The notes under the pieces: generated by a model
Databases searched by the model: none
The model's input: the letters and a program-made list of their open reading frames with translations, nothing else
Told to the model about the DNA's origin: nothing
Source: an uncultured Gammaproteobacteria bacterium
GTDB taxonomy: Bacteria; Patescibacteriota; Microgenomatia; Daviesbacterales; UBA10151
Assembly: GCA_964362195.1 (NCBI GenBank)
Contig: CAYICZ010000002.1
Location: 63 to 64,062, forward strand
Direction of reading: 5' to 3'
Length of the DNA stretch: 64,000 bases
In this document: positions 2,355-46,501 of the stretch, piece after piece
Layout: each line of letters begins with the position of its first letter
How positions within the stretch are numbered: the stretch's first letter is position 1
Made by a program: the position numbers and the translations under genes

Positions 2355-2428
2355 AAATCCGCAGGTGTAGCTACAATTCCACCCCCGGGGTGGACATTCG
2401 ATAAGTAAAAGAATGCCAGATAGAAAAT
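2345..2428. repeat. composite palindromic insert (REP-cluster-like) between two ~50-bp imperfect direct copies of the pepN 3' end
   Basis: 2281-2330 and 2428-2480 are near-identical (gtgg[a/g]atggttaaaaagggatag...attaagaa.tttttagaaaa); the segment between them carries aggtgtagctacaattc (half-site of the cacctcgaaggtg family) and ccacccccggggtggac (7-bp stem hairpin). Confidence 0.5.
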
Positions 2429-24137: not shown

Positions 24138-24859
24138 AAAAATTACTGTCTATAATGTCTGTATTACTGTTTGGATTTTTAACAGCCGCTCCTGCTTATG
24201 CCTCTACTTTATCCCTCTCCCCTGCATCCGGCACCTTTAATAAAGGCTGCAACTTTGTTTTGGATGTTTTACTTGATACCCAAGGAGCATCAACAGACGG
24301 GACTGATGCTTATATTAATTTTGATTCCTCCCGTTTTACTATGGTTAGTATAAATACAACAGGAAAAATATACCCTGAATATCCTGGCAGCGGAATAGAT
24401 TCTCAAAATGTTAACAAAATTTTAATCTCAGGTTTGGCAACCTTTGGACAACCATATTCAGGTTCAGGAAAGCTGGCTACTATTAATTTTACAGTGAAAG
24501 AAGCAGCCCAAACAGGACTGTCTCAGATGACTTTTGATTTTGATACAAACAATAAAAACTCAACTATTGATTCAAATGTGGTTAAATCAGGTGATTCTAC
24601 AGAAACGCTGACATCTGTAAATAATGGAAGCTATACTATAGGTACAGGGAGTTGTACCAGTCCTTCCCCTACTCCTGCAGGAAGAGTTAATATAGGAGGG
24701 CCTAATATTTCCACCCCTTCTGCAACACAAATTCCTTTGAAACAAATACCTACCAAAGAAAGTTTGCCTGATGCCGGGACACCTGAGTTTACAGCCGCAA
24801 TTGCTATTGTTGGTTCTATTTTAACTGTCCTGGGGATTTTAGGACTGGCTTTGTTATGA
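24134..24859 (+). CDS. secreted cohesin-like protein with C-terminal LPDAGTPEF + TM anchor
   Basis: signal peptide ending AYAST; cohesin-like block NFVLDVLLDTQGASTDGTDAYINFDSSRFTMVSI...GKLATINFTVKEAAQTGLSQMTFDF; C-terminus LPDAGTPEFTAAIAIVGSILTVLGILGLALL. Confidence 0.5.
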   Translation: MKKLLSIMSVLLFGFLTAAPAYASTLSLSPASGTFNKGCNFVLDVLLDTQGASTDGTDAYINFDSSRFTMVSINTTGKIYPEYPGSGIDSQNVNKILISGLATFGQPYSGSGKLATINFTVKEAAQTGLSQMTFDFDTNNKNSTIDSNVVKSGDSTETLTSVNNGSYTIGTGSCTSPSPTPAGRVNIGGPNISTPSATQIPLKQIPTKESLPDAGTPEFTAAIAIVGSILTVLGILGLALL

Positions 24860-25779
24860 CACTTGCTGCGCTGATAACTGATTTTTTAGAGTATCTGGAA
24901 CTGGAGAGGAATACCTCACAGCTGACTATTAAAAATTATGATCATTATCTAAAGCGGTTTCTGGATTTTGCAGGTGATATCAATCCAAAAGATATAGATT
25001 TAAATCTTGTTAGAAAATATAGACTGCACCTTTCAAGATGGGCAGATCCCCAGACACAAAAATCCTTAAAAAGAATTACCCAGAATTATTTTATGATAGC
25101 TTTGCGGGCATTTTTAAGATATTTGGCCAGAATAGATATTGATACTCTCTCCCCTGAGAAAGTTGAGCTTGGTGAAACAGATCCAAGACCCTTAAAGATC
25201 CTGGATGATAGCCATTTAAAACAGCTTTTAGAGGCCCCTGATACCACTAAAAAAGATGGAATCAGGGATAGAAGTATCCTGGAAACCTTATTTTCAACCG
25301 GCCTGCGTGTATCTGAGCTTGCCTCACTGAATTGTGACACCATTAATTTAGGAAGGCGTGAATTTGGGATTGTTGGCAAAGGAGGAAAAGAGCGGGTAGT
25401 ATTTATCTCTGACTCGGCAGCTGAGTGGCTCCAGAAATATCTGGATATCCGGAAAGACAGCTTTAAACCGCTTTTTATCAGATTTCAGGGAAGGATGGAT
25501 CCTGCAAATAATGGTGAGGCAATGAGGCTTACACCACGATCAATTGAAAGAATAGTAGAAAAATATGTTAAATCTTTAGGCTTTTCTGTAAAAGCTACCC
25601 CGCATACATTACGTCACTCTTTTGCTACAGATTTATTAATTAATGGAGCAGATATCCGCTCTGTGCAGGAAATGCTTGGACACTCCTCTATTCAAACAAC
25701 CCAAATTTACACCCATGTGACAAATGCACATTTAAAAGACGTTCACAAAGCCTTTCACTCTAGTAATTCCAAAGAATAG
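24856..25779 (+). CDS. tyrosine recombinase XerC/XerD family
   Basis: N-terminal LITDFLEYLELERNTSQLTIKNY core-binding pattern; C-terminal HTLRHSFATDLLINGADIRSVQEMLGHSSIQTTQIYTHV with the catalytic Tyr. Confidence 0.85.
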   Translation: MTLAALITDFLEYLELERNTSQLTIKNYDHYLKRFLDFAGDINPKDIDLNLVRKYRLHLSRWADPQTQKSLKRITQNYFMIALRAFLRYLARIDIDTLSPEKVELGETDPRPLKILDDSHLKQLLEAPDTTKKDGIRDRSILETLFSTGLRVSELASLNCDTINLGRREFGIVGKGGKERVVFISDSAAEWLQKYLDIRKDSFKPLFIRFQGRMDPANNGEAMRLTPRSIERIVEKYVKSLGFSVKATPHTLRHSFATDLLINGADIRSVQEMLGHSSIQTTQIYTHVTNAHLKDVHKAFHSSNSKE

Positions 25780-26246: not shown

Positions 26247-27020
26247 ATGGCCACAAATCTTTCAATCCCATCTTTAGGAGCTAAATTTGTGGATTTAAGA
26301 GATTCTCTTCCCGGAGACTCTTATAATTGGAGTTGGATTAGACAGCTGTCTCAGGTAAATTATCTGGCAATACATCACAGCGCCGGTTCGGATACTCAAA
26401 CCCCGGAAGAAATCGCAGATTATCATATAACTGATCATGGCTGGGGCGGGATTGGGTATCATTTTTTAATTGCTAAAGATGGAGTAGTTTATTATGTAGG
26501 TGACATAGGAACAGCCAGGGCTAATGTTGTTAATTTAAACGAACAGGTAATAGGTATTTGTTTGATAGGGAATTTTACCTCCGGCAGAACTCCTACGGAG
26601 GAGCAAATTGATTCTACTCATAAACTTTGTGAGGCCTTAATCAACTATCCTGAGCTGTCAAATGTTAATTCCTGGGAAGCGCTAAAGTCTCATAAAAGTC
26701 TGCCTGGTCAAGCAACTGTTTGCCCTGGAGATGATGATTCCTGGATGAATAAAATTATTTCCCCCAGAGAAATTATATTTAACCAACCCTTAACTCAAAG
26801 TCAGGAAGTATTAAATTTAAGGTTGCAGGTTGATTCTTTGCAAACTACGCTGGCAACAGTTAATCAGCAGCTTATTTTTTTGCAGGAAGCTTTAGCTGAA
26901 AAAGATCAGAAAAATAGTAATCCTACCCAAACTTTAAAACCTCTCTACCTCGCATTAGCCACCGCCATATTTATAGATTTTATGCTGTCAGGCTTTATAA
27001 TTTTGCTAGGATCTAAATAA
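26247..27020 (+). CDS. N-acetylmuramoyl-L-alanine amidase (Amidase_2/PGRP domain) with C-terminal coiled region and TM anchor
   Basis: HHSAGSD...GWGGIGYHFLI...VIGICLIGNF...ATVCPGD zinc-ligand pattern of Amidase_2. Confidence 0.75.
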   Translation: MATNLSIPSLGAKFVDLRDSLPGDSYNWSWIRQLSQVNYLAIHHSAGSDTQTPEEIADYHITDHGWGGIGYHFLIAKDGVVYYVGDIGTARANVVNLNEQVIGICLIGNFTSGRTPTEEQIDSTHKLCEALINYPELSNVNSWEALKSHKSLPGQATVCPGDDDSWMNKIISPREIIFNQPLTQSQEVLNLRLQVDSLQTTLATVNQQLIFLQEALAEKDQKNSNPTQTLKPLYLALATAIFIDFMLSGFIILLGSK

Positions 27021-27026
27021 TTACAC

Positions 27027-27737
27027 TTACACCTCGAAGGTGTAAAGCTAAATCTCATCCACAAGATGATGTTTTATAAATTCTAACGCTTTGCCATAAT
27101 CAATCTGATCTTCCACAAATTCCGTGTATTTTTCTCTGGAAGGGAATAAATTTAGAATCTCAAGGGGATTACAGAATAGACTATGAGTTTGGGTGTATTC
27201 TAAATATGAAGACCAGGGATAGTATTCTGGTTTCTTGGTCAAATCAGAAACAACCGGATTTAGGTGGATATATCTGGAAACATGAATTAATTGTTCTTGT
27301 GACTCAATCAGGACTGCCTTAAAAGCTCCTTGAAGTAAGGGCCCTACCCTTTTGTATTTAATATTAAAATATTTTGTATAACTGTTAGAAAGTTGGCTCA
27401 TGAAAATTGATATTCCATTGTCTTTCAACTGCTTAACTAAGAAATGGAAGTGATTTGGCATTAAACAATAACAAAGTACCTCTACTATTTTGTTATTGAA
27501 CGAAGTTTTAAAAAGATCTGTCTTTGTAAAATTTGCAAATCTTGGTTTAGGTCCAGGGAATTGGTAATAATATGAGGTTTTCAAAAACCTCATATAATCT
27601 CTGGATTGTTGATAGATGCTTCTTTTCTCGCTGCCCCTGTTATAAATATGATAAAACTCGTTGTTTACTAAGGGTGTAATTCTTCCGGGCATATAAATTA
27701 GTTTACGATTACACCTTCGAGGTGTCAAGCTACATTT
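27027..27737 (-). mobile_element. RayT/IS200-like HUH tyrosine transposase unit flanked by cognate hairpin repeats
   Basis: hairpins ttacacctcgaaggtgtaaagctaaat (27027-27054) and ttacaccttcgaggtgtcaagctacat (27707-27737) bracket the transposase ORF in the same orientation. Confidence 0.6.
27048..27692 (-). CDS. REP-associated tyrosine transposase (Y1 HUH, IS200/IS605 TnpA-like)
   Basis: HUH motif CLMPNHFHFLV and C-terminal SRYIHLNPVVSDL...YPWSSY; start moved to the internal MPGRITPL (27692), because the track N-terminal 23 aa are a translated hairpin repeat. Confidence 0.7.
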   Translation of the reverse strand: MPGRITPLVNNEFYHIYNRGSEKRSIYQQSRDYMRFLKTSYYYQFPGPKPRFANFTKTDLFKTSFNNKIVEVLCYCLMPNHFHFLVKQLKDNGISIFMSQLSNSYTKYFNIKYKRVGPLLQGAFKAVLIESQEQLIHVSRYIHLNPVVSDLTKKPEYYPWSSYLEYTQTHSLFCNPLEILNLFPSREKYTEFVEDQIDYGKALEFIKHHLVDEI

Positions 27738-27945
27738 ATATAGGTTTGCCGGCCAGGCCAAAGATTAGCAGATCGTTAACAAAACCGGTTGCCTGAAATG
27801 GCCAGGTAATAATTACTGAGTAAAATCCCGGAGATAAAAAAGAAATAACAGGCCATTTATAATATATAGCAAAGACTATGGTAAAGACAAATCCTACCAT
27901 AAAATAACTAATAGCAATTGTAGAAAGTATGGCAGACTTTTTCAT
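27736..27945 (-). CDS. small hydrophobic protein (2 TM), hypothetical
   Basis: 69 aa, 4-bp overlap with the gyrA stop; could be spurious. Confidence 0.3.
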
Positions 27946-30503
27946 TTAGTCTTATCCTGATTAACATTATCAGCTGTTTTGTCTTTGCTGGCAACCACTG
28001 TGGCAGCAACAACTTTTTCTCCCGGCCTTACCCGCATTAATATTACACCCTGTGTTTGGCGCTGAAGTGTTGGTACTTCCTTAAGGCTCATCTTAATTAG
28101 CTGTCCTTTGGTGGATGTTAGAACCAAAGTATCCATTGATTTATCAACAACGGAAGCTGTGACAATGTCACCTGTTTTGGCAGTTATTTGGGCAGCTTTC
28201 ACTCCCTGTCCTCCCCTGCCTTGTTTGCTCCAACCGGTTGTCAGGGTTTTTTTGCCTAAACCATTTTCCATAACTACCAAAAGTTCTCCTTCTACTTTTC
28301 CTATAATATTTAAAGAAACAACCTGATCGTCTTTTCCTAAGCGTATTCCTCTGACTCCTGAGGTGTCCCGATGGGTTGGCTTCACCTGCTTTTCGCTAAA
28401 ACGGATCGATTTTCCTTTTTTGGATACTATAATAACTTCATCTTCCCCTGTTGTGGGGGAAACCCAGCCTAAAACATCTCCGGTGTCAAGCTTTATAGCC
28501 ACCAGGCCATTCTTTCTGATATTTGCGTATTCTGTCAAAGCAGTTTTCTTAACAGTTCCGCGCGAGGTACACATAAAGAAGTATTTAGCGCTTTCTCCTT
28601 TACCCCTAGTGGTCAATACTGCAGTTACTTTTTCACCTTGTTCAACATTTATTAAATTGACAATTGCCTGGCCTTTGGCTACTCTTTGGGTTTCCGGAAT
28701 TTCCCAAACCTTTACCTGATAAACTTTACCCTTGTCTGTAAAGAATAAAATATTGTCATGGGTTTGGGTATAAAATATGTGAGAAACCGCATCTGTTTCT
28801 TTTGTAGAGATTCCCATAACTCCTTTTCCACCCCGCTGTTGGGTTCTAAAAGAGGCAGGAGCTTGTCTTTTAACATATCCGCCTTCGGTAATTGTGACAA
28901 TAGTTACCTCATTTGGTACCAAATCTTCTTCATTAAACTCCCCTATTTTTTGTTTATAAACCCTAGTTTTTCTATCATCACCATATCTTTCTTTTATGTT
29001 AATCAGCTCATTTTTAATAACTTTTAAAATTTTCTCAGGATGGGCCAGCAAATCAGTCAAATAAGCAATAGTTTCCTGGACCATTTTCAACTCATCTTCA
29101 ATTTTTTGCCGCTCCAGGGCTGCCAGACGCCTTAGCTGCATATCCAAAATAGACACTGCCTGTATCTCTGATAATTTAAATTTTTTCATCAAATTAATCT
29201 TTGCCTCATCTGAGTCTTTTGATTTTCGAATTGTGGCAATTACCTCATCTATGTTATCAACAGCTATTTTTAATCCTTCTAAAATATGCTCTCTGGCCTT
29301 AGCTTCGCTCAACTCAAACTCAGACCTTCTTCTAATAATTGTCTGACGGTGGGAAATAAACTCCTCTAAAATATGCTTTAGGGTCAAAAGATGTGGCACG
29401 CCATCAACTAAGGCAACCAGATTAACATTAAAAACAGACTGCATAGCGGTTGATTTATAAAGGTTATTTAAAAGGGATTGTGGCTTTGCATCTTTCTTTA
29501 GATCAAACACAATTCTGACCATTTGTTTTCTGTCTGATTCATCTCTTAAGTCTGCAACTCCTTCCAGTTTTTTATCCTTAACCAAATCTGCAATCCTGGC
29601 AATCAGGGTGGATTTATTAACCTGATAAGGCAGCTCAGAAACAATAATCTGCATTTTTCCTGCTGGTGTTTCATCAATTTCTGCTTTGGCTCTCATCACA
29701 ATTCGCCCCTTTCCTGTGGCATAAGCAGCCAGGATTTCTGTCTGGTCGTAAATTGAAGCGCCTGTGGGGAAATCAGGCCCTTTAATAAACCCCAGCAGCT
29801 CTTCCACTGATGCATCTGAGGTAAATTTACCGGTTGAGTCAAACTTAGTCATGGTATCTGAGTGATCAATACCTTCTGTTTTTTCTTCGCTACCCCCTTT
29901 TGAAGGGTTCTCAATCATATAAACTAAAGCGTCGCAAACCTCACCTAGATTATGAGGCGGAATTTGGGTGGCCATGCCAACAGCAATACCTGAGGCGCCA
30001 TTAAGCAGCAGATTAGGTATAACAGATGGAAGCACAGTTGGTTCCTGAATTGTGCCGGAATAATTATCCACAAAATCTACCGTGTTTTTATTAATATCCC
30101 TAAGCAGCTCATCTGCAATTGCAGCCAGTCTGGCTTCTGTATACCTCATGGCTGCAGGAGAATCTCCGTCAATTGAGCCATAGTTTCCCTGACCGTCAAC
30201 TAACATGTATCTTAGGGAAAAATTCTGAGCCATCCTGACCATGGCTTCATAAACAGGGGCATCACCATGAGGGTGTAAATTTTTTAATACCTCACCAACA
30301 ACTGCAGCAGACTTTTGATACCTGGAGGTATGATGCAGGCCTTGCTCGTTCATGGCAAAGACAATCCTCCGTTGGACAGGTTTAAGGCCATCTCTTACAT
30401 CCGGCAAAGCTCTTGAGATAATAACAGACATTGCATAATTCACGTATGAATCCTGCATCTCTTTTATAATTGGGGTTGGTTCTATTTTTCCGATATTACT
30501 CAT
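27942..30503 (-). CDS. gyrA: DNA gyrase subunit A
   Basis: [10 protein letters not shown] active-site Tyr region and a C-terminal beta-pinwheel; 853 aa. Confidence 0.95.
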
Positions 30504-30528: not shown

Positions 30529-31143
30529 TTAGGTTAGCTTAAGCAAGGGGAATTTAGCCTTTCTGGGCCAGTTGCGCCAGGCCTGTTCATTTCTATATAA
30601 AGTGAACTCACTCTTTTTAACCCAATGCAAATTATCCGGGTTAGTAATATGATCCACAAATATTTTGCCGATTAAATGATCAATTTCATGCTGAAAAATT
30701 CTTGCCACATATCCACTATATTTTTTTTCTGTATATCTAGCTTGCAACCTCGGAGGTTGCAGCGTAAATCCTCTAATTTTTATGGAAGTTGGTCTGGAGA
30801 CAATGCCGCAAACTCTTCCTGTTGAGAAACAACCTTCATACCACTCCCCTTTCTTTTTGGATTTCCAGATAATTTCCGGATTTATATAAACGCGAAGATT
30901 TCCGACCTGGCCTTTGCCATTAGCTGCTACATCAACGAGGATTATCCTTTTTAAAATCCCAATCTGCGGCGCGGCCAGTCCTACCATCACAGGTTTATTC
31001 TTATTTTTTTGCTCACCAGACGCAACTTTTAACATAAGATTAATAATCTCCTTAGTTTCTTTTGAAGAAATTTGCTCTTTGGGAATTTTTTTGGAAATTT
31101 TTGTTAAAAGCGGATTATTGGGCTTAAGGAATCTTGTTCGCAT
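30529..31143 (-). CDS. def: peptide deformylase (N-terminal extension; in-frame palindromic insert encoding TLQPPRLQA)
   Basis: Def motifs GLAAPQIG, EGCFS and QHEIDHL; identical 30-nt palindromic element sits in the loop between motifs II and III. Confidence 0.85.
   Translation of the reverse strand: MRTRFLKPNNPLLTKISKKIPKEQISSKETKEIINLMLKVASGEQKNKNKPVMVGLAAPQIGILKRIILVDVAANGKGQVGNLRVYINPEIIWKSKKKGEWYEGCFSTGRVCGIVSRPTSIKIRGFTLQPPRLQARYTEKKYSGYVARIFQHEIDHLIGKIFVDHITNPDNLHWVKKSEFTLYRNEQAWRNWPRKAKFPLLKLT
30738..30767. repeat. REP-like palindromic element tagcttgcaacctcggaggttgcagcgtaa (copy 1, inside def)
   Basis: identical 30-mer also at 40633-40662; 9-10 bp stem. Confidence 0.8.
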
Positions 31144-35017: not shown

Positions 35018-35824
35018 ATGCGTAATAATCCAATTGGTATCTTTGACTCTGGAATAGGCGGTTTGACAGTAGTTAAAGAAATTATAAAAACACTCCCTCA
35101 TGAAAGTATCATTTATATTGGGGATACAGCCAGAGTGCCATATGGACCAAGGAGTAAAGAAGTTGTTACTAAGTTTGCCATGGAAATGGTTACTTTCCTG
35201 CTTAGGAGGAAAATTAAAGCTTTGGTTATTGCCTGTAATACAATTTCAGGCTTAAGTTATGATGAGATTAGAGATGCAGTTTATCCTATTATAACTTTGG
35301 GAGTTATTAGACCGGCAGTCAGGCTTGCGATTCAAACCACTAAAAATAAAAAAATCGGGATAATAGGTACAGAAGGGACTATAAAGAGTCAGTCTTATCA
35401 GAAGATGTTTGAATTTTACAACTCTGATGCCCGAATTATATCTTCTGCCTGTCCTTTATTTGTGCCAATGGCCGAAGAAGGTTTGAATAATCACAAAGCG
35501 ACTAAATTGATAGCTCAGGATTATCTGAAGGAGTTTATTAAAAATAAAGTAGATACTCTGATTTTAGGCTGTACTCACTATCCTCTGTTGTATGATGCTA
35601 TTCAAGAGACTGTAGGAAAAGAAATGACATTAATAGATTCTGCTCAGCCAACAGCCCAAATGTTAAAAGAAAGATTAGAAGATGTGAATCTGTTGAGTGA
35701 TAACCCAAATCCCAAACATGAATTTTATGTCACTGATGCACCTGAGCGGGTAAAAAAAGTAGCAGGCAGATTTTTTGGGGAGGAGTTAAATGGGAAATTA
35801 AAAAAAGTTAATCTTGAGGATTAA
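35018..35824 (+). CDS. murI: glutamate racemase
   Basis: IGIFDSGIGGLTVV and the second catalytic Cys motif GCTHYPLL. Confidence 0.9.
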   Translation: MRNNPIGIFDSGIGGLTVVKEIIKTLPHESIIYIGDTARVPYGPRSKEVVTKFAMEMVTFLLRRKIKALVIACNTISGLSYDEIRDAVYPIITLGVIRPAVRLAIQTTKNKKIGIIGTEGTIKSQSYQKMFEFYNSDARIISSACPLFVPMAEEGLNNHKATKLIAQDYLKEFIKNKVDTLILGCTHYPLLYDAIQETVGKEMTLIDSAQPTAQMLKERLEDVNLLSDNPNPKHEFYVTDAPERVKKVAGRFFGEELNGKLKKVNLED

Positions 35825-37112
35825 CTAATCCTCTAGCCATTTTATCTATATCCCCTGCTCCCATGAAAAATAAAATATCTCCTGGCTTTGCATATTGTTC
35901 AAATTCTTGTCTTTTAAGTTCTTTTGCGAAGTAAACGTTATTTTTGCCTATAGCTTTAACTAACTCCTGCGAACTTACTAAACCTATATCAATTTCTCTT
36001 GAGGGGTAAATATCCAAAATAACAATGCCTTCAACAGGCAAATTTTTAAATACTTTTACAAAATCACTAAATAAAGCCTTAGTTCGACTAAACATGTGGG
36101 GTTGATAGAAAAACCAGATTTTTTGATTTGGAAATTTTTCCCTGGCAGCTTCCATGGTTTTTTTAATCTCTGTAGGATGATGGCCAAAATCAGAGTAAAC
36201 TTTGGCCCCATGATACTCTCCTAAATACTCAAATCTTCTGCCAACTCCATTATAGTTATTTAAGCTATTTCTTATAATCTCCGGGTCGATTCCCAGAAGC
36301 AAACCCACTTGAAAAGCTGCTTTGGCATTTGAAATATTATATTCTCCCGGAATTTTAAGATTAAATTCTACCTCTATTTTATTAAAATCTAGCGCGGAAA
36401 CGCTAGAATGTTTCATGACATCTTTTACAATCTCTGCCACGTTTTTATCCAGAAGATTTGCCGCGATAGTTTGCTTACTTTGCAAAAGAAACTTCTCGAA
36501 AGATCCTAAATATGCATTTATGTCTTTAAAATATTCCGGATGATCCATTTCAATATTGGTAACAACAGTTATGTTTGGTTTAAAATGCAAAAAATTATCA
36601 TTAAACTCATCCGCCTCCACTACGAAGTATTTACTCTCTCCGGTTCGGTAATTTGTTTTCCATTTTGGATGGATTGCTCCAAGTAAAACAGTTGGGTCTA
36701 AGTTTGCGTCCTCCAGCATTTGAGCAATCATGGCAGTAGTTGTTGTTTTGCCATGTGTTCCGCAAACAGCAATTACAAATTTATCCTTGGTTAAATACTC
36801 TCCTGTAAACTGCTGCCAGGTTAAAACCGGAATGCCTAATTTTTTTGCCTCTAATAATTCCGGATTATTAGGATCTAGCGATGTAATTGCCGGAGTAATT
36901 GCCAAAATATCAATATTCGAATGGCCACCCCCGGGGTGGACGTTTAAATGTTTTGGGCTGTGACCTTTTAGAAGATGGGAAGATTTAAACTGGGTGGTAA
37001 ATTCGTTATTCGGTTCTAAATCACAACCGGTTATTTCAAATCCCTGAGCTTTTGCTAGTGCAGCCGCAGCTGATGCTCCAGATCCCCCTATTCCCAAAAA
37101 ATGCACTTTCAT
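35808..37112 (-). CDS. murC: UDP-N-acetylmuramate--L-alanine ligase (with in-frame palindrome encoding VHPGGGH)
   Basis: HFLGIGGSGASAAAALA N-terminus and the P-loop GTHGKTTTTAMIAQ. Confidence 0.85.
   Translation of the reverse strand: MKVHFLGIGGSGASAAAALAKAQGFEITGCDLEPNNEFTTQFKSSHLLKGHSPKHLNVHPGGGHSNIDILAITPAITSLDPNNPELLEAKKLGIPVLTWQQFTGEYLTKDKFVIAVCGTHGKTTTTAMIAQMLEDANLDPTVLLGAIHPKWKTNYRTGESKYFVVEADEFNDNFLHFKPNITVVTNIEMDHPEYFKDINAYLGSFEKFLLQSKQTIAANLLDKNVAEIVKDVMKHSSVSALDFNKIEVEFNLKIPGEYNISNAKAAFQVGLLLGIDPEIIRNSLNNYNGVGRRFEYLGEYHGAKVYSDFGHHPTEIKKTMEAAREKFPNQKIWFFYQPHMFSRTKALFSDFVKVFKNLPVEGIVILDIYPSREIDIGLVSSQELVKAIGKNNVYFAKELKRQEFEQYAKPGDILFFMGAGDIDKMARGLVNPQD
36926..36942. repeat. hairpin ccacccccggggtggac (same as 2378-2395), embedded in-frame in murC
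   Basis: 7-bp stem ccacccc/ggggtgg; identical 17-mer in the pepN 3' region. Confidence 0.7.
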
Positions 37113-37120
37113 GGGGTTAA

Positions 37121-40381
<3,261 letters not shown>

Positions 40382-40384
40382 CTA

Positions 40385-41017
40385 TCATTTTATTGAAGGC
40401 ATGACCAGCATTAAATATTCCAAAATTGCCCTTATATTTACATTCTGTTTTTGCCACTCCCCTGCCTGCAAAAGTTCTTTTACAAATTTAGAATTGGCGG
40501 GTAATTTTTTATGAAAATAGTCTAGTAAAGAAAGAAAAAACTCTTCCCTGTCTTTTAATTTTTCAATATATTCAAATCTCTGTTCTAAATTGGATTCTAA
40601 TAATTTTTCTATATCTGCTGAAAAGTTAGATTTAGCTTGCAACCTCGGAGGTTGCAGCGTAATTATCTGGCATCGGGATAAAACCGTTGGTAAAAATGGA
40701 GCATCTGAGTTTGCACATAAAATAAATAAACCATGTTTTGGTAGTTCTTCTAAAGTTTTAAGCAGAGCATTTTGGGCCTCAGGGGTTAGCGAGGTTGCAT
40801 CTTCTAAAACAACAGCCCTGCCTTTACCGGAGTATGGCTTTAGTGAAAAAAACTCTTTTATTTTTCTGGACTCAGCAATTCCTAACTTGGAATCTGAGCT
40901 AAAATACAATAAATCCGGATGATTATTTACGTTCACACCTCGAAGGTGTAAGGCTAAATTCTCTTGAATTTCTTTTTTTATTGTTTCAAGTGGTCCAATT
41001 AAAAGCCTTGCAATCAT
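40385..41017 (-). CDS. holB: DNA polymerase III delta-prime-like subunit, short form lacking the N-terminal P-loop; two in-frame palindromic inserts
   Basis: HPDL...GRAVVLEDATSLTPEAQNALLKTLEELP...FILCANSDAPFLPTVLSRCQ matches delta-prime/tau box motifs; the inserts encode ENLALHLRGVN and TLQPPRLQA. Confidence 0.65.
   Translation of the reverse strand: MIARLLIGPLETIKKEIQENLALHLRGVNVNNHPDLLYFSSDSKLGIAESRKIKEFFSLKPYSGKGRAVVLEDATSLTPEAQNALLKTLEELPKHGLFILCANSDAPFLPTVLSRCQIITLQPPRLQAKSNFSADIEKLLESNLEQRFEYIEKLKDREEFFLSLLDYFHKKLPANSKFVKELLQAGEWQKQNVNIRAILEYLMLVMPSIK
40633..40662. repeat. REP-like palindromic element tagcttgcaacctcggaggttgcagcgtaa (copy 2, inside holB)
   Basis: identical to 30738-30767. 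Confidence 0.8.
40933..40960. repeat. REP-like hairpin ttcacacctcgaaggtgtaaggctaaatt (third copy of the family flanking the transposase; inside the holB 5' end)
   Basis: compare 27027-27054 and 27707-27737. Confidence 0.75.
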
Positions 41018-45579: not shown

Positions 45580-46466
45580 ATTTGAATTGGTTTGTAGTTT
45601 CGGGAATGGTTTTGGGTGCAATTTTGGGAAGCTTAGTTAAAGCGCTCTCTGATCGGAGCCTAATAAATAAGTCCTTTTGGGGAAGGTCGTATTGTCCGAT
45701 ATGCCATAAGCATTTGAGATTATACGACCTTTTTCCAGTTCTTTCCTATTTATCCACCAGTGGAAGGTGTAGATACTGCAAAAAAAAGATTGGGATTGAA
45801 TATCCTCTGGTAGAAATTGTGATGGGAGTATTAATAGGTTTTCTTTTTTTTCAAAGCTCCCTGAGTTTACTGTCGGTAAATCTTGTTTTAAGTCTTATTT
45901 ATAAAATATTCTTTATCACAATTCTTGCTGTTTTGTTTTTAACAGATTTAAAAAAGATGTTTATACCGGATAGGATAATACTTCCCTCTTTGGTAATAGG
46001 CCTTATCCTTAGTCTGGGAATCACTATTTATAAAATAGGATATTTATATTATTTTCTGCTGCAAAACCCGGTTGGAAAGTTTCTACTCCCCCCCCACTCC
46101 GATTATTTCCTAAGACATGCATTTTATGCTGCAGAGCCCGCCTTAACAGGAATTTTAATGGCCATCTTGATAGGTGGATTTTTCTGGGGTTTAATTATTA
46201 TCACAAAAGGAAAAGGTATGGGTGGAGGTGATGTTAAGCTGGGAGCATTCATGGGGTTGATGTTAGGTTTTCCTCAAGCTCTTATTGCCTTAATTTTATC
46301 TTTTTTAATAGGCGCAATATTTTCCATAATTTTAATTATTTTTGGCAAAAAACATTTAGGACAAACTATCCCCTTTGGACCATTTTTAGTTTTAGGCAGT
46401 TTAATAGTTTTATTTTGGGGAGAAAAGATTTTAAACTGGTACCTAAACTTAAGTATAGGTACTTGA
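45567..46466 (+). CDS. pilD: prepilin peptidase PilD (A24 family)
   Basis: N-terminal CPICHK...CRYCKKKI zinc-binding cytoplasmic domain and a polytopic peptidase core with the catalytic Asp motif GGGDVKL. Confidence 0.85.
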   Translation: MHLLNLNWFVVSGMVLGAILGSLVKALSDRSLINKSFWGRSYCPICHKHLRLYDLFPVLSYLSTSGRCRYCKKKIGIEYPLVEIVMGVLIGFLFFQSSLSLLSVNLVLSLIYKIFFITILAVLFLTDLKKMFIPDRIILPSLVIGLILSLGITIYKIGYLYYFLLQNPVGKFLLPPHSDYFLRHAFYAAEPALTGILMAILIGGFFWGLIIITKGKGMGGGDVKLGAFMGLMLGFPQALIALILSFLIGAIFSIILIIFGKKHLGQTIPFGPFLVLGSLIVLFWGEKILNWYLNLSIGT

Positions 46467-46501
46467 CATCAGACGCTTTTCGTACAAATAATTAAGTAGT
46501 A

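Follow-up and report, generated by a model that had tools for sequence, protein, structure and literature searches.

The DNA analyzed here, which we call the window, is a stretch of 64,000 nt from the small genome of a groundwater bacterium of the Patescibacteriota (contig CAYICZ010000002.1). It carries a RayT-like gene for a putative Y1 HUH enzyme, framed on both sides by short palindromes that resemble others dispersed through the window. The gene occupies 27048..27692 on the minus strand and encodes a protein of 214 amino acids (aa), running from an ATG at 27692 to a TAG at 27050-27048. An earlier, sequence-only reading of the window had placed it between an amidase gene and gyrA; we find that order as well, with a 69-aa open reading frame (ORF) intervening.

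The ORF list gives this gene a longer minus-strand frame, 27048..27761, with 237 aa and a TTG start. The motifs previously noted in that frame, NHFHFLV and YIHLNPV...YPWSSY, are all present (the second as RYIHLNPV...YPWSSY); in the numbering of the 214-aa protein, the HUH motif is H81-F82-H83 and the presumed catalytic tyrosine is Y141, within RYIHLNP. The 5' extension (27693..27761, minus strand) is spurious. Its 23 codons translate the upstream palindrome, as the sequence-only reading had proposed and as both the ORF listing and the sequence bear out, and they overlap the 3' end of the 69-aa ORF (stop codon 27738-27736); no aligned homolog has this extension. The end coordinate given in that reading, 27737, falls inside the 237-aa ORF but short of its TTG at 27761. 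Given that the ~120 homologs listed are 212-235 aa long (mostly 213-218) and cover 98-100% of the 214-aa query, and that 25 of 25 aligned homologs share an N-terminus of the form M[PS][GA]R, which is MPGR in the window protein, we place the start at ATG 27692, where the earlier proposal of MPGRITPL had put it. A promoter-like site with -35 and -10 boxes that ends 7 nt upstream is a further point in favor of this codon; no Shine-Dalgarno sequence precedes it. Exact-sequence look-ups with the 214-aa and 237-aa products returned no match. Annotation of such genes should start at MP[GS]R and not at upstream codons that translate a palindrome. Within the coding sequence, at 27567-27598 (codons ~32-42), lies a perfect palindrome with an 11-bp stem, ATATGAGGTTT-TTGA-AAACCTCATAT, which is found only in this genome; three residues that are conserved elsewhere are replaced there (DYMRFLKTSYY versus DYKRFQQTFYY in relatives).

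The palindromic units that flank the gene, which we call family A, lie at 27703..27735 (upstream) and 27021..27053 (downstream). On the minus strand, which is the gene strand, they read ATGTAGCTTGACACC-TCGAA-GGTGTAATCGTAA and ATTTAGCTTTACACC-TTCGA-GGTGTAAGTGTAA; on the plus strand their cores are ACACCTTCGAGGTGT (27711-27725) and ACACCTCGAAGGTGT (27029-27043). Written out with the inner stem on the gene strand, the upstream copy is ATGTAGCTTG-ACACC-TCGAA-GGTGT-AATCGTAAAC, the downstream copy is ATTTAGCTTT-ACACC-TTCGA-GGTGT-AAGTGTAATT, and a third copy elsewhere in the window is ATTTAGCCTT-ACACC-TTCGA-GGTGT-GAACGTAAAT. The pattern ACACC-N5-GGTGT occurs at these three places (27029-27043, 27711-27725, and 40935-40949) and in none of 100 shuffles. 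The hairpins had been reported at 27707-27737 on the 5' flank and at 27027-27054 over the stop codon; both are present at the revised positions given above, and the stop codon does lie inside the downstream unit, where it is the TAG of the 5' arm ATTTAGC.

The two flanking units repeat each other directly, with 79% identity over 33 nt. The outer arms of all three family-A copies point the same way, and the apical loop of the upstream copy is the exact reverse complement of the others; within a 6-bp stem, the loop is CGA or TCG. The earlier statement that the two hairpins share one orientation and differ only in the loop holds for the 15-nt cores, which are otherwise alike, and for the direct outer arms, but the loop itself is inverted and the outer arms differ at further positions. 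The window and the related loci L081 and L082 share the arrangement with TCGAA upstream and TTCGA downstream, and L005 and L011 show similar flips. Folded as single-stranded DNA, the hairpins are of modest stability (-4.5 to -6.1 kcal/mol; z -2.7 to -4.3). Four nucleotides from the inner stem there is a tag, GTAG in the upstream copy and TTAG in the other family-A copies, with TTAG or CTAG in a second palindrome family, B, described below. An Rfam scan of 26500-28200 returned no match, and therefore no known RNA family explains the hairpins.

The sequence-only reading had named two checks of its transposase assignment, a Y1 profile search and a comparison of the flanks of other copies, and both came out in its favor. 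For the first, the Pfam profile Y1_Tnp (PF01797) matches residues 60-143 of the 214-aa protein with 30.9-31.7 bits, above the cut-off of 23. In a profile search of solved structures, the top match is E. coli TnpA-REP (4ER8; E 0.021); an AlphaFold model of the protein (pLDDT 83.7) gives the same structure as the best Foldseek hit (E 6.7e-6, TM score 0.60), followed by the TnpA proteins of IS608 and ISDra2. H81, H83, Y141, N145, and P146 are invariant in our alignment A1 of 26 sequences.

Quentin et al. 2018 divide Y1 enzymes into class 1, the IS200 transposases, with a Y-x-x-x-Q motif and many identical copies, and class 2, with Y-x-x-x-N-P and low copy number, several of whose subclasses are associated with repetitive extragenic palindromic (REP) sequences (PMC6006769). 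Subclass 2.1, which corresponds to group 1 of the REP-associated tyrosine transposases (RAYTs) of Bertels 2017 and to the TIRYT group of Di Nocera 2013, is reported to be without REPs (PMC6006769). In the window protein, the tyrosine motif Y141-I-H-L-N145-P carries the class-2 signature Y-x-x-x-N-P (PMC6006769), and NHFH, YIHLNP, and WSSY, the last being the 'SS' proximal tail, agree with the subclass 2.1 motifs NH[YF]H and Y[IV]HLNP and its 'SS' tail. Judged by these motifs, the label 'RayT-like' is right at the level of class-2 Y1 enzymes, with subclass 2.1 as the nearest group. Relatives in Legionella and Collinsella, found in the plasmid collection and outside the candidate phyla radiation, are 29-30% identical to the window protein over the core and proximal tail; unlike it, they have a distal C-terminal helix-turn-helix domain (the Legionella example gives weak, sub-threshold Pfam matches to Bac_DnaA_C, HTH_23, and HTH_28, the Collinsella one to other HTH families). 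In the window protein, the last 50 residues have no Pfam match, and the protein ends before the region of that domain. It has instead an insertion of ~31 residues, at about residues 44-68, after the first helix and a helical tail, and its clade, in contrast to subclass 2.1, has flanking and dispersed hairpins. The protein is best described as belonging to an undescribed Patescibacteria branch of class-2 Y1 enzymes, outside the E. coli RayT equivalog family, and the clade is seemingly a separate branch close to subclass 2.1. The family comprises 1386 clusters (50% identity) at E<=1e-30; its named members are nearly all from Patescibacteria/Microgenomates and are annotated merely as "transposase". 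In the plasmid collection, we found no relatives of at least 40% identity.

Purifying selection acts on the gene. In a comparison with the closest relative, L081 (90% aa identity), the synonymous divergence (dS) is 0.50 and the ratio of nonsynonymous to synonymous divergence (dN/dS) is 0.12. One could take the weak profile scores, 31 bits in Pfam and a value under the cut-off in NCBIfam, as signs of a decaying, inactive transposase relic whose flanks are similar by chance. We regard this as extremely improbable: nothing interrupts the ORF, the catalytic residues do not vary, the dN/dS is low, the family is large, and the flank repeat was absent from all 100 shuffles. Such a reading is already contradicted by the selection and conservation data.

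For the second check, we compared 110 nt on each side of the gene at 80 homologous loci from species-representative genomes, 74 of which were usable. At 58 of the 74, the 5' and 3' flanks have at least 12 identical nucleotides in common, compared to a median of 7-8 in control segments, so matching hairpins do recur around other copies of the gene. The shared segments are direct at 35 of these loci and inverted or loop-flipped at 21, with two ties. The hairpin stems vary by lineage (ACACC, CAACC, CCACCC, CCACAT, and CACACAC), and hairpin distance follows protein distance with a Spearman correlation of 0.47, a value reached in 0 of 2000 permutations. Two genomes have two homologs each, and these paralogs are just 40-55% identical. 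At one locus (L001 10655-10720), the downstream palindrome of the homolog is apparently split by a nested GC-rich insertion, CAACCTCGAAGG ... GGTTGCAGGCTAAAT.

Palindromes of the gene-flanking types also occur without the gene. In 511 kb of related loci we found 19 such solo copies, on the same contigs as the homologs. In metagenomes, the exact 20-mer TTRACACCTCGAAGGTGTAA occurs at five distinct sites directly 5' of a homolog and at ten distinct solo sites; the arms of the solo copies are fully palindromic, TTTAGCTT...AAGCTAAA. In two assemblies from Hainich H43, the groundwater site from which the window also comes (L095 880-899 and L101 2701-2720), a family-A copy lies in frame in an ORF of at least 405 aa, with the peptide SRLHLRGVKLN; this copy may come from the same genome as the window. 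At L104 1685-2602, and also in L098, L100, and L111, two direct family-A palindromes 898 bp apart surround an unrelated 189-aa ORF, with no Y1 gene.

The window itself has five solo copies. The third family-A palindrome (40926..40959, minus strand; core 40935-40949) has no Y1 gene beside it and lies in frame in a delta'-like ORF (40385..41017), where it encodes the peptide NLALHLRGVNVNN; it is absent from the orthologs in L086 and L088. Family B is represented on the plus strand at 30735..30769 by ATCTAGCT-TGCAACCT-CGG-AGGTTGCA-GCGTAAAT, in frame in def (peptide FTLQPPRLQAR), and by a second copy at 40630..40664, also on the plus strand and in frame in the same delta'-like (DNA polymerase III, holB-like) ORF (peptide TLQPPRLQAK). 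Family B looks older than family A because its site in the delta' gene (site 2) is shared with L086, at 77% identity, and the family-A site (site 1) is not. Family C consists of an intergenic hairpin, TCCACCC-CCG-GGGTGGA (2378..2394), which on the minus strand is followed by ACACCTGCGGAT, a module that flanks MPSR-type homologs (L006-L014), and of CCACCC-CCG-GGGTGG (36924..36940) inside murC (ORF 35808..37112), with the peptide NVHPGGGHS. The outer arms of families B and C are the same as those of family A. Neither has a cognate Y1 gene in the 64 kb, and their stems match gene flanks elsewhere (B in L001 and L003, C in L006-L008), which points to additional paralogs in other parts of the genome or to relics of a former type.

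Essential genes thus carry four of the five solo copies in frame, one in def, two in the delta'-like gene, and one in murC. At the Def site, the protein of L002 lacks five residues exactly there, L087 has a half-remnant, and L088 has a palindrome of the type found on either side of its own Y1 gene. In the delta' family, LA[SL]HLxG[GV]N is a translated palindrome, present or absent at two positions in different lineages. PDB homologs of Def and MurC have gaps of 5-8 residues at the palindrome sites. We looked among the intragenic copies for clean insertions bordered by target-site duplications and found none. Alleles with and without the palindrome are 12-15 nt apart in length, and even the empty sites have a sequence similar to that of the outer arms. 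A given site can carry one palindrome type in one genome and another type in a second genome. REPs inside genes have been described before, frequently in replication genes (Di Nocera 2013, PMC3733652), and therefore this is a new case, not a new phenomenon. Like intragenic REPs and the Rickettsia palindromic elements (PMC3733652), the copies here are in frame in essential genes, among them genes for replication, and some orthologs have them and others do not; the copies here differ in being shorter (~33 nt, 11 codons), in the 12-15-nt difference between filled and empty sites, and in the type found per site in different genomes. In the neighborhood of these genes, gyrB (37121-40369, minus strand) encodes 1082 aa with an intein: an insert of ~430 residues follows GDSAGG, the identical product in L083 has a Pfam match to Intein_splicing, and the orthologs in L087 and L088, at 646-647 aa, have no intein.

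A tentative idea, to which we give some weight although we think it rather unlikely, is that the palindromes are cassettes of a system driven by the Y1 enzyme in these tiny genomes: short units bearing their own -35/-10 elements would have been written in frame into a few tolerant loops (in def, delta', murC, and alanine racemase) and later overwritten by the type of the resident Y1 gene. If true, this would explain the differing types per site, the allele difference of 12-15 nt, which is the size of the inner hairpin, and the persistence of types B and C with no gene nearby.

The palindromes at the gene itself coincide with expression signals. The upstream copy is enclosed in a sigma-70-like promoter (27700..27728, minus strand), with -35 TTGACA at 27728-27723, a 17-nt spacer, and -10 TAAACT at 27705-27700, so that the hairpin lies between the boxes. 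With 10 of 12 consensus matches, this is the best promoter-like site of the region. The short distance from the -10 box to the ATG and the missing Shine-Dalgarno sequence imply a leaderless mRNA. Sites that have 9 or more of 12 matches and end 5-10 nt upstream of the ATG are found at 34 of 77 homolog loci, compared to 1.3% of random ATGs, and in 27 of the 34 the spacer is 17 nt. Promoter activity, like any autoregulation, is presumed. The downstream unit scored as terminator-like. We also considered the upstream hairpin as an intrinsic terminator of the gyrA operon and rejected it, as no T-run follows the hairpin. A run of 35 nt, from CTTGACACC to AAACTAATTT, is identical in the window and L082, although the proteins are only 74% identical and synonymous differences (pS 0.76) are saturated; this identity means that the upstream flank is under constraint or is kept uniform in some other way. 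The region of the downstream unit is identical in L081 at 48 of 48 nt.

These signals raise the question of whether the hairpins are anything more than the promoter/operator and terminator of a domesticated Y1 gene with some other function on single-stranded DNA, their look-alikes spreading or persisting by host processes. The promoter-like layout around or beside the hairpin in 34 of 77 loci, the terminator-like downstream stem, the low copy number, and the report that subclass 2.1 relatives have no REPs all fit this explanation. We nevertheless find it quite improbable: the same unit stands on both sides of the gene, with a -35-like module downstream too, and the solo copies that lie in frame inside genes are useless for expression of the RayT-like gene. 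Solo copies moreover match the hairpin type at the genome's own Y1 gene, as in the def copy of L088, and hairpin and protein divergence are correlated.

The order gyrA, 69-aa ORF, RayT-like gene, and convergent Amidase_2 gene is common to the window and L081, and in part to L082. L081 has an extra 610 bp (822-1430) directly 5' of the palindrome, after the small ORF, with a 171-aa ORF that has no Pfam match and a CCACCT-CGA-AGGTGG hairpin; the context shared apart from this insert delimits a conserved unit from ~27730, at the -35 box, to ~27026, at the end of the 3' hairpin. Among the top GTDB loci, only L022, L074, and L080 have a homolog beside the 3' end of gyrA, in the opposite orientation. 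L088 is syntenic with the window over 27-48 kb and, between a pilin gene and a prepilin peptidase gene, has a homolog of 59% identity that carries hairpins of a type of its own. There the site is filled (L088 3683-4509), whereas the corresponding site is empty in the window (46455-46501) and in L087 (4427-4501); this shows that the gene-plus-hairpins unit has moved during evolution. The sequence-only reading had put the gene at the edge of a recombinase-bounded island. We dropped this idea: the recombinase (24856-25779) is Xer-like, scoring 241 bits with XerC and above the XerA cut-off, and is probably the chromosome-dimer resolvase, and the neighborhood is syntenic in relatives, with gene order kept in the closest one.

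A rival reading is an autonomous IS200-like element, in which a 0.7-kb hairpin-gene-hairpin unit transposes through a single-stranded intermediate and the solo palindromes are remnants or miniature derivatives. IS200 is ~0.7 kb long. At ~715 bp, the unit here is near that length; the outer arms of both flanking units are on one strand, as in the left and right ends of IS200/IS605 elements; the gene's position differs between syntenic genomes; and the TnpA proteins of IS608 and ISDra2, which share the Y1 HUH fold, are the next-best fold matches. We consider such an element unlikely all the same, since the tyrosine motif is Y-x-x-x-N-P and not the Y-x-x-x-Q of IS200, no second copy exists in the 64 kb (no second Y1 gene was found there by tblastn with five divergent family members), and paralogs in the same genome are as little as 40-55% identical. 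The gyrA/small ORF/gene/amidase context is kept in orthologs at 90% identity with a dN/dS of 0.12, the solo copies are full palindromes rather than truncated element ends, and the plasmid collection has no close relatives. Nor do we see here the trans-assembled dimer active site, the near-identical copies, or the frequent tnpB of the IS200/IS605 family.

Our preferred interpretation, which we think likely to be correct, is that the locus is a REPtron: an apparently single-copy gene, kept by selection, for a class-2 Y1 HUH single-strand DNA nuclease/transferase together with its cognate REP-like palindromes of ~33 nt, both flanking and dispersed. The gene is present once in 64 kb, in a context common to L081 and L082 that differs in L088. 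By family precedent and comparative evidence, a palindrome in single-stranded DNA would form a short hairpin with an inner stem of 5-8 bp, a 3-nt loop, and imperfect outer arms bearing the [G/T]TAG tag. The enzyme would bind this hairpin, cut near it using Y141 and the metal-binding H81/H83, and rejoin the strands, and copies of the palindrome would in this way be spread, exchanged, or maintained. It is plausible, as the sequence-only reading supposed, that the enzyme mobilizes the dispersed palindromes. The flanking copies would have been co-opted for expression: a leaderless mRNA would start from a promoter whose -35 and -10 boxes enclose the upstream copy, and the downstream copy provides the stop codon and a terminator-like stem.

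Several observations weigh against a REPtron. The NCBIfam model REP_Tyr_transpos (NF047646) gives 54.3 bits (E 1.4e-14), below its equivalog cut-off of 80 bits, and identity to 4ER8 is just 13%. The NHFH and YIHLNP motifs fit a subclass reported without REPs. In classical REPtrons the flanking copies are inverted; here their outer arms are direct, and the gene, whose position differs between the otherwise syntenic L088 and window, moves or has moved as a unit. Copy density is low, at ~1 per 27 kb in related loci and one solo family-A copy in the window. A [GT]TAG tag is found near only ~14% of hairpin strands, compared to a background of 4.4%, at a modal distance of 4-5 nt from the stem and followed by CT. 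Hairpin binding, cleavage, and mobilization by the enzyme are what we infer from family precedent and comparative evidence.

The best-known system of this kind is the E. coli REPtron, in which TnpA-REP (RayT, YafM; 4ER8) acts with REPs and bacterial interspersed mosaic elements (BIMEs); there, a REP hairpin bearing GTAG on its 5' side is bound by the enzyme, which cuts at CT (PMC3479197). The window system resembles it in several respects: TnpA-REP is the best solved-structure match by both sequence and fold, the two enzymes share HUH and Y-x-x-x-N-P motifs, the gene is framed by cognate palindromes that are also found solo, and divergent paralogs seem to be present in low copy number. In both, a tag and then CT stand 5' of the stem, with [G/T]TAG here and GTAG in E. 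coli; this resemblance to the E. coli recognition and cleavage elements may serve as a lead. The differences, beyond low identity and the NCBIfam score, are in protein and palindromes alike. Compared to 4ER8, the 214-aa window protein has the ~31-residue insertion and helical tail described above, and at the position of the E. coli metal ligand H123 its family has an invariant Ser. In contrast to E. coli REPs, the palindromes here are short and nearly symmetrical, resembling the "double-foot" REPs of subclass 2.4, and number in the tens rather than hundreds; their outer arms are direct, and they sit in the gene's promoter and carry its stop codon.

Most descriptions of REP/RAYT systems come from Proteobacteria, Cyanobacteria, and Bacteroidetes, and in the literature we found no paper linking them to Patescibacteria. 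A gene framed by palindromes is a known arrangement; this would be its first case in Patescibacteria, where it is not yet described. If our interpretation holds, there is a large clade with such palindromes near subclass 2.1, a group thought to be REP-free, and even genomes of ~1 Mb with almost no intergenic space keep a system of this kind. They apparently manage this in part by letting the palindrome double as promoter, stop codon, and terminator, and by carrying copies in frame in essential genes.

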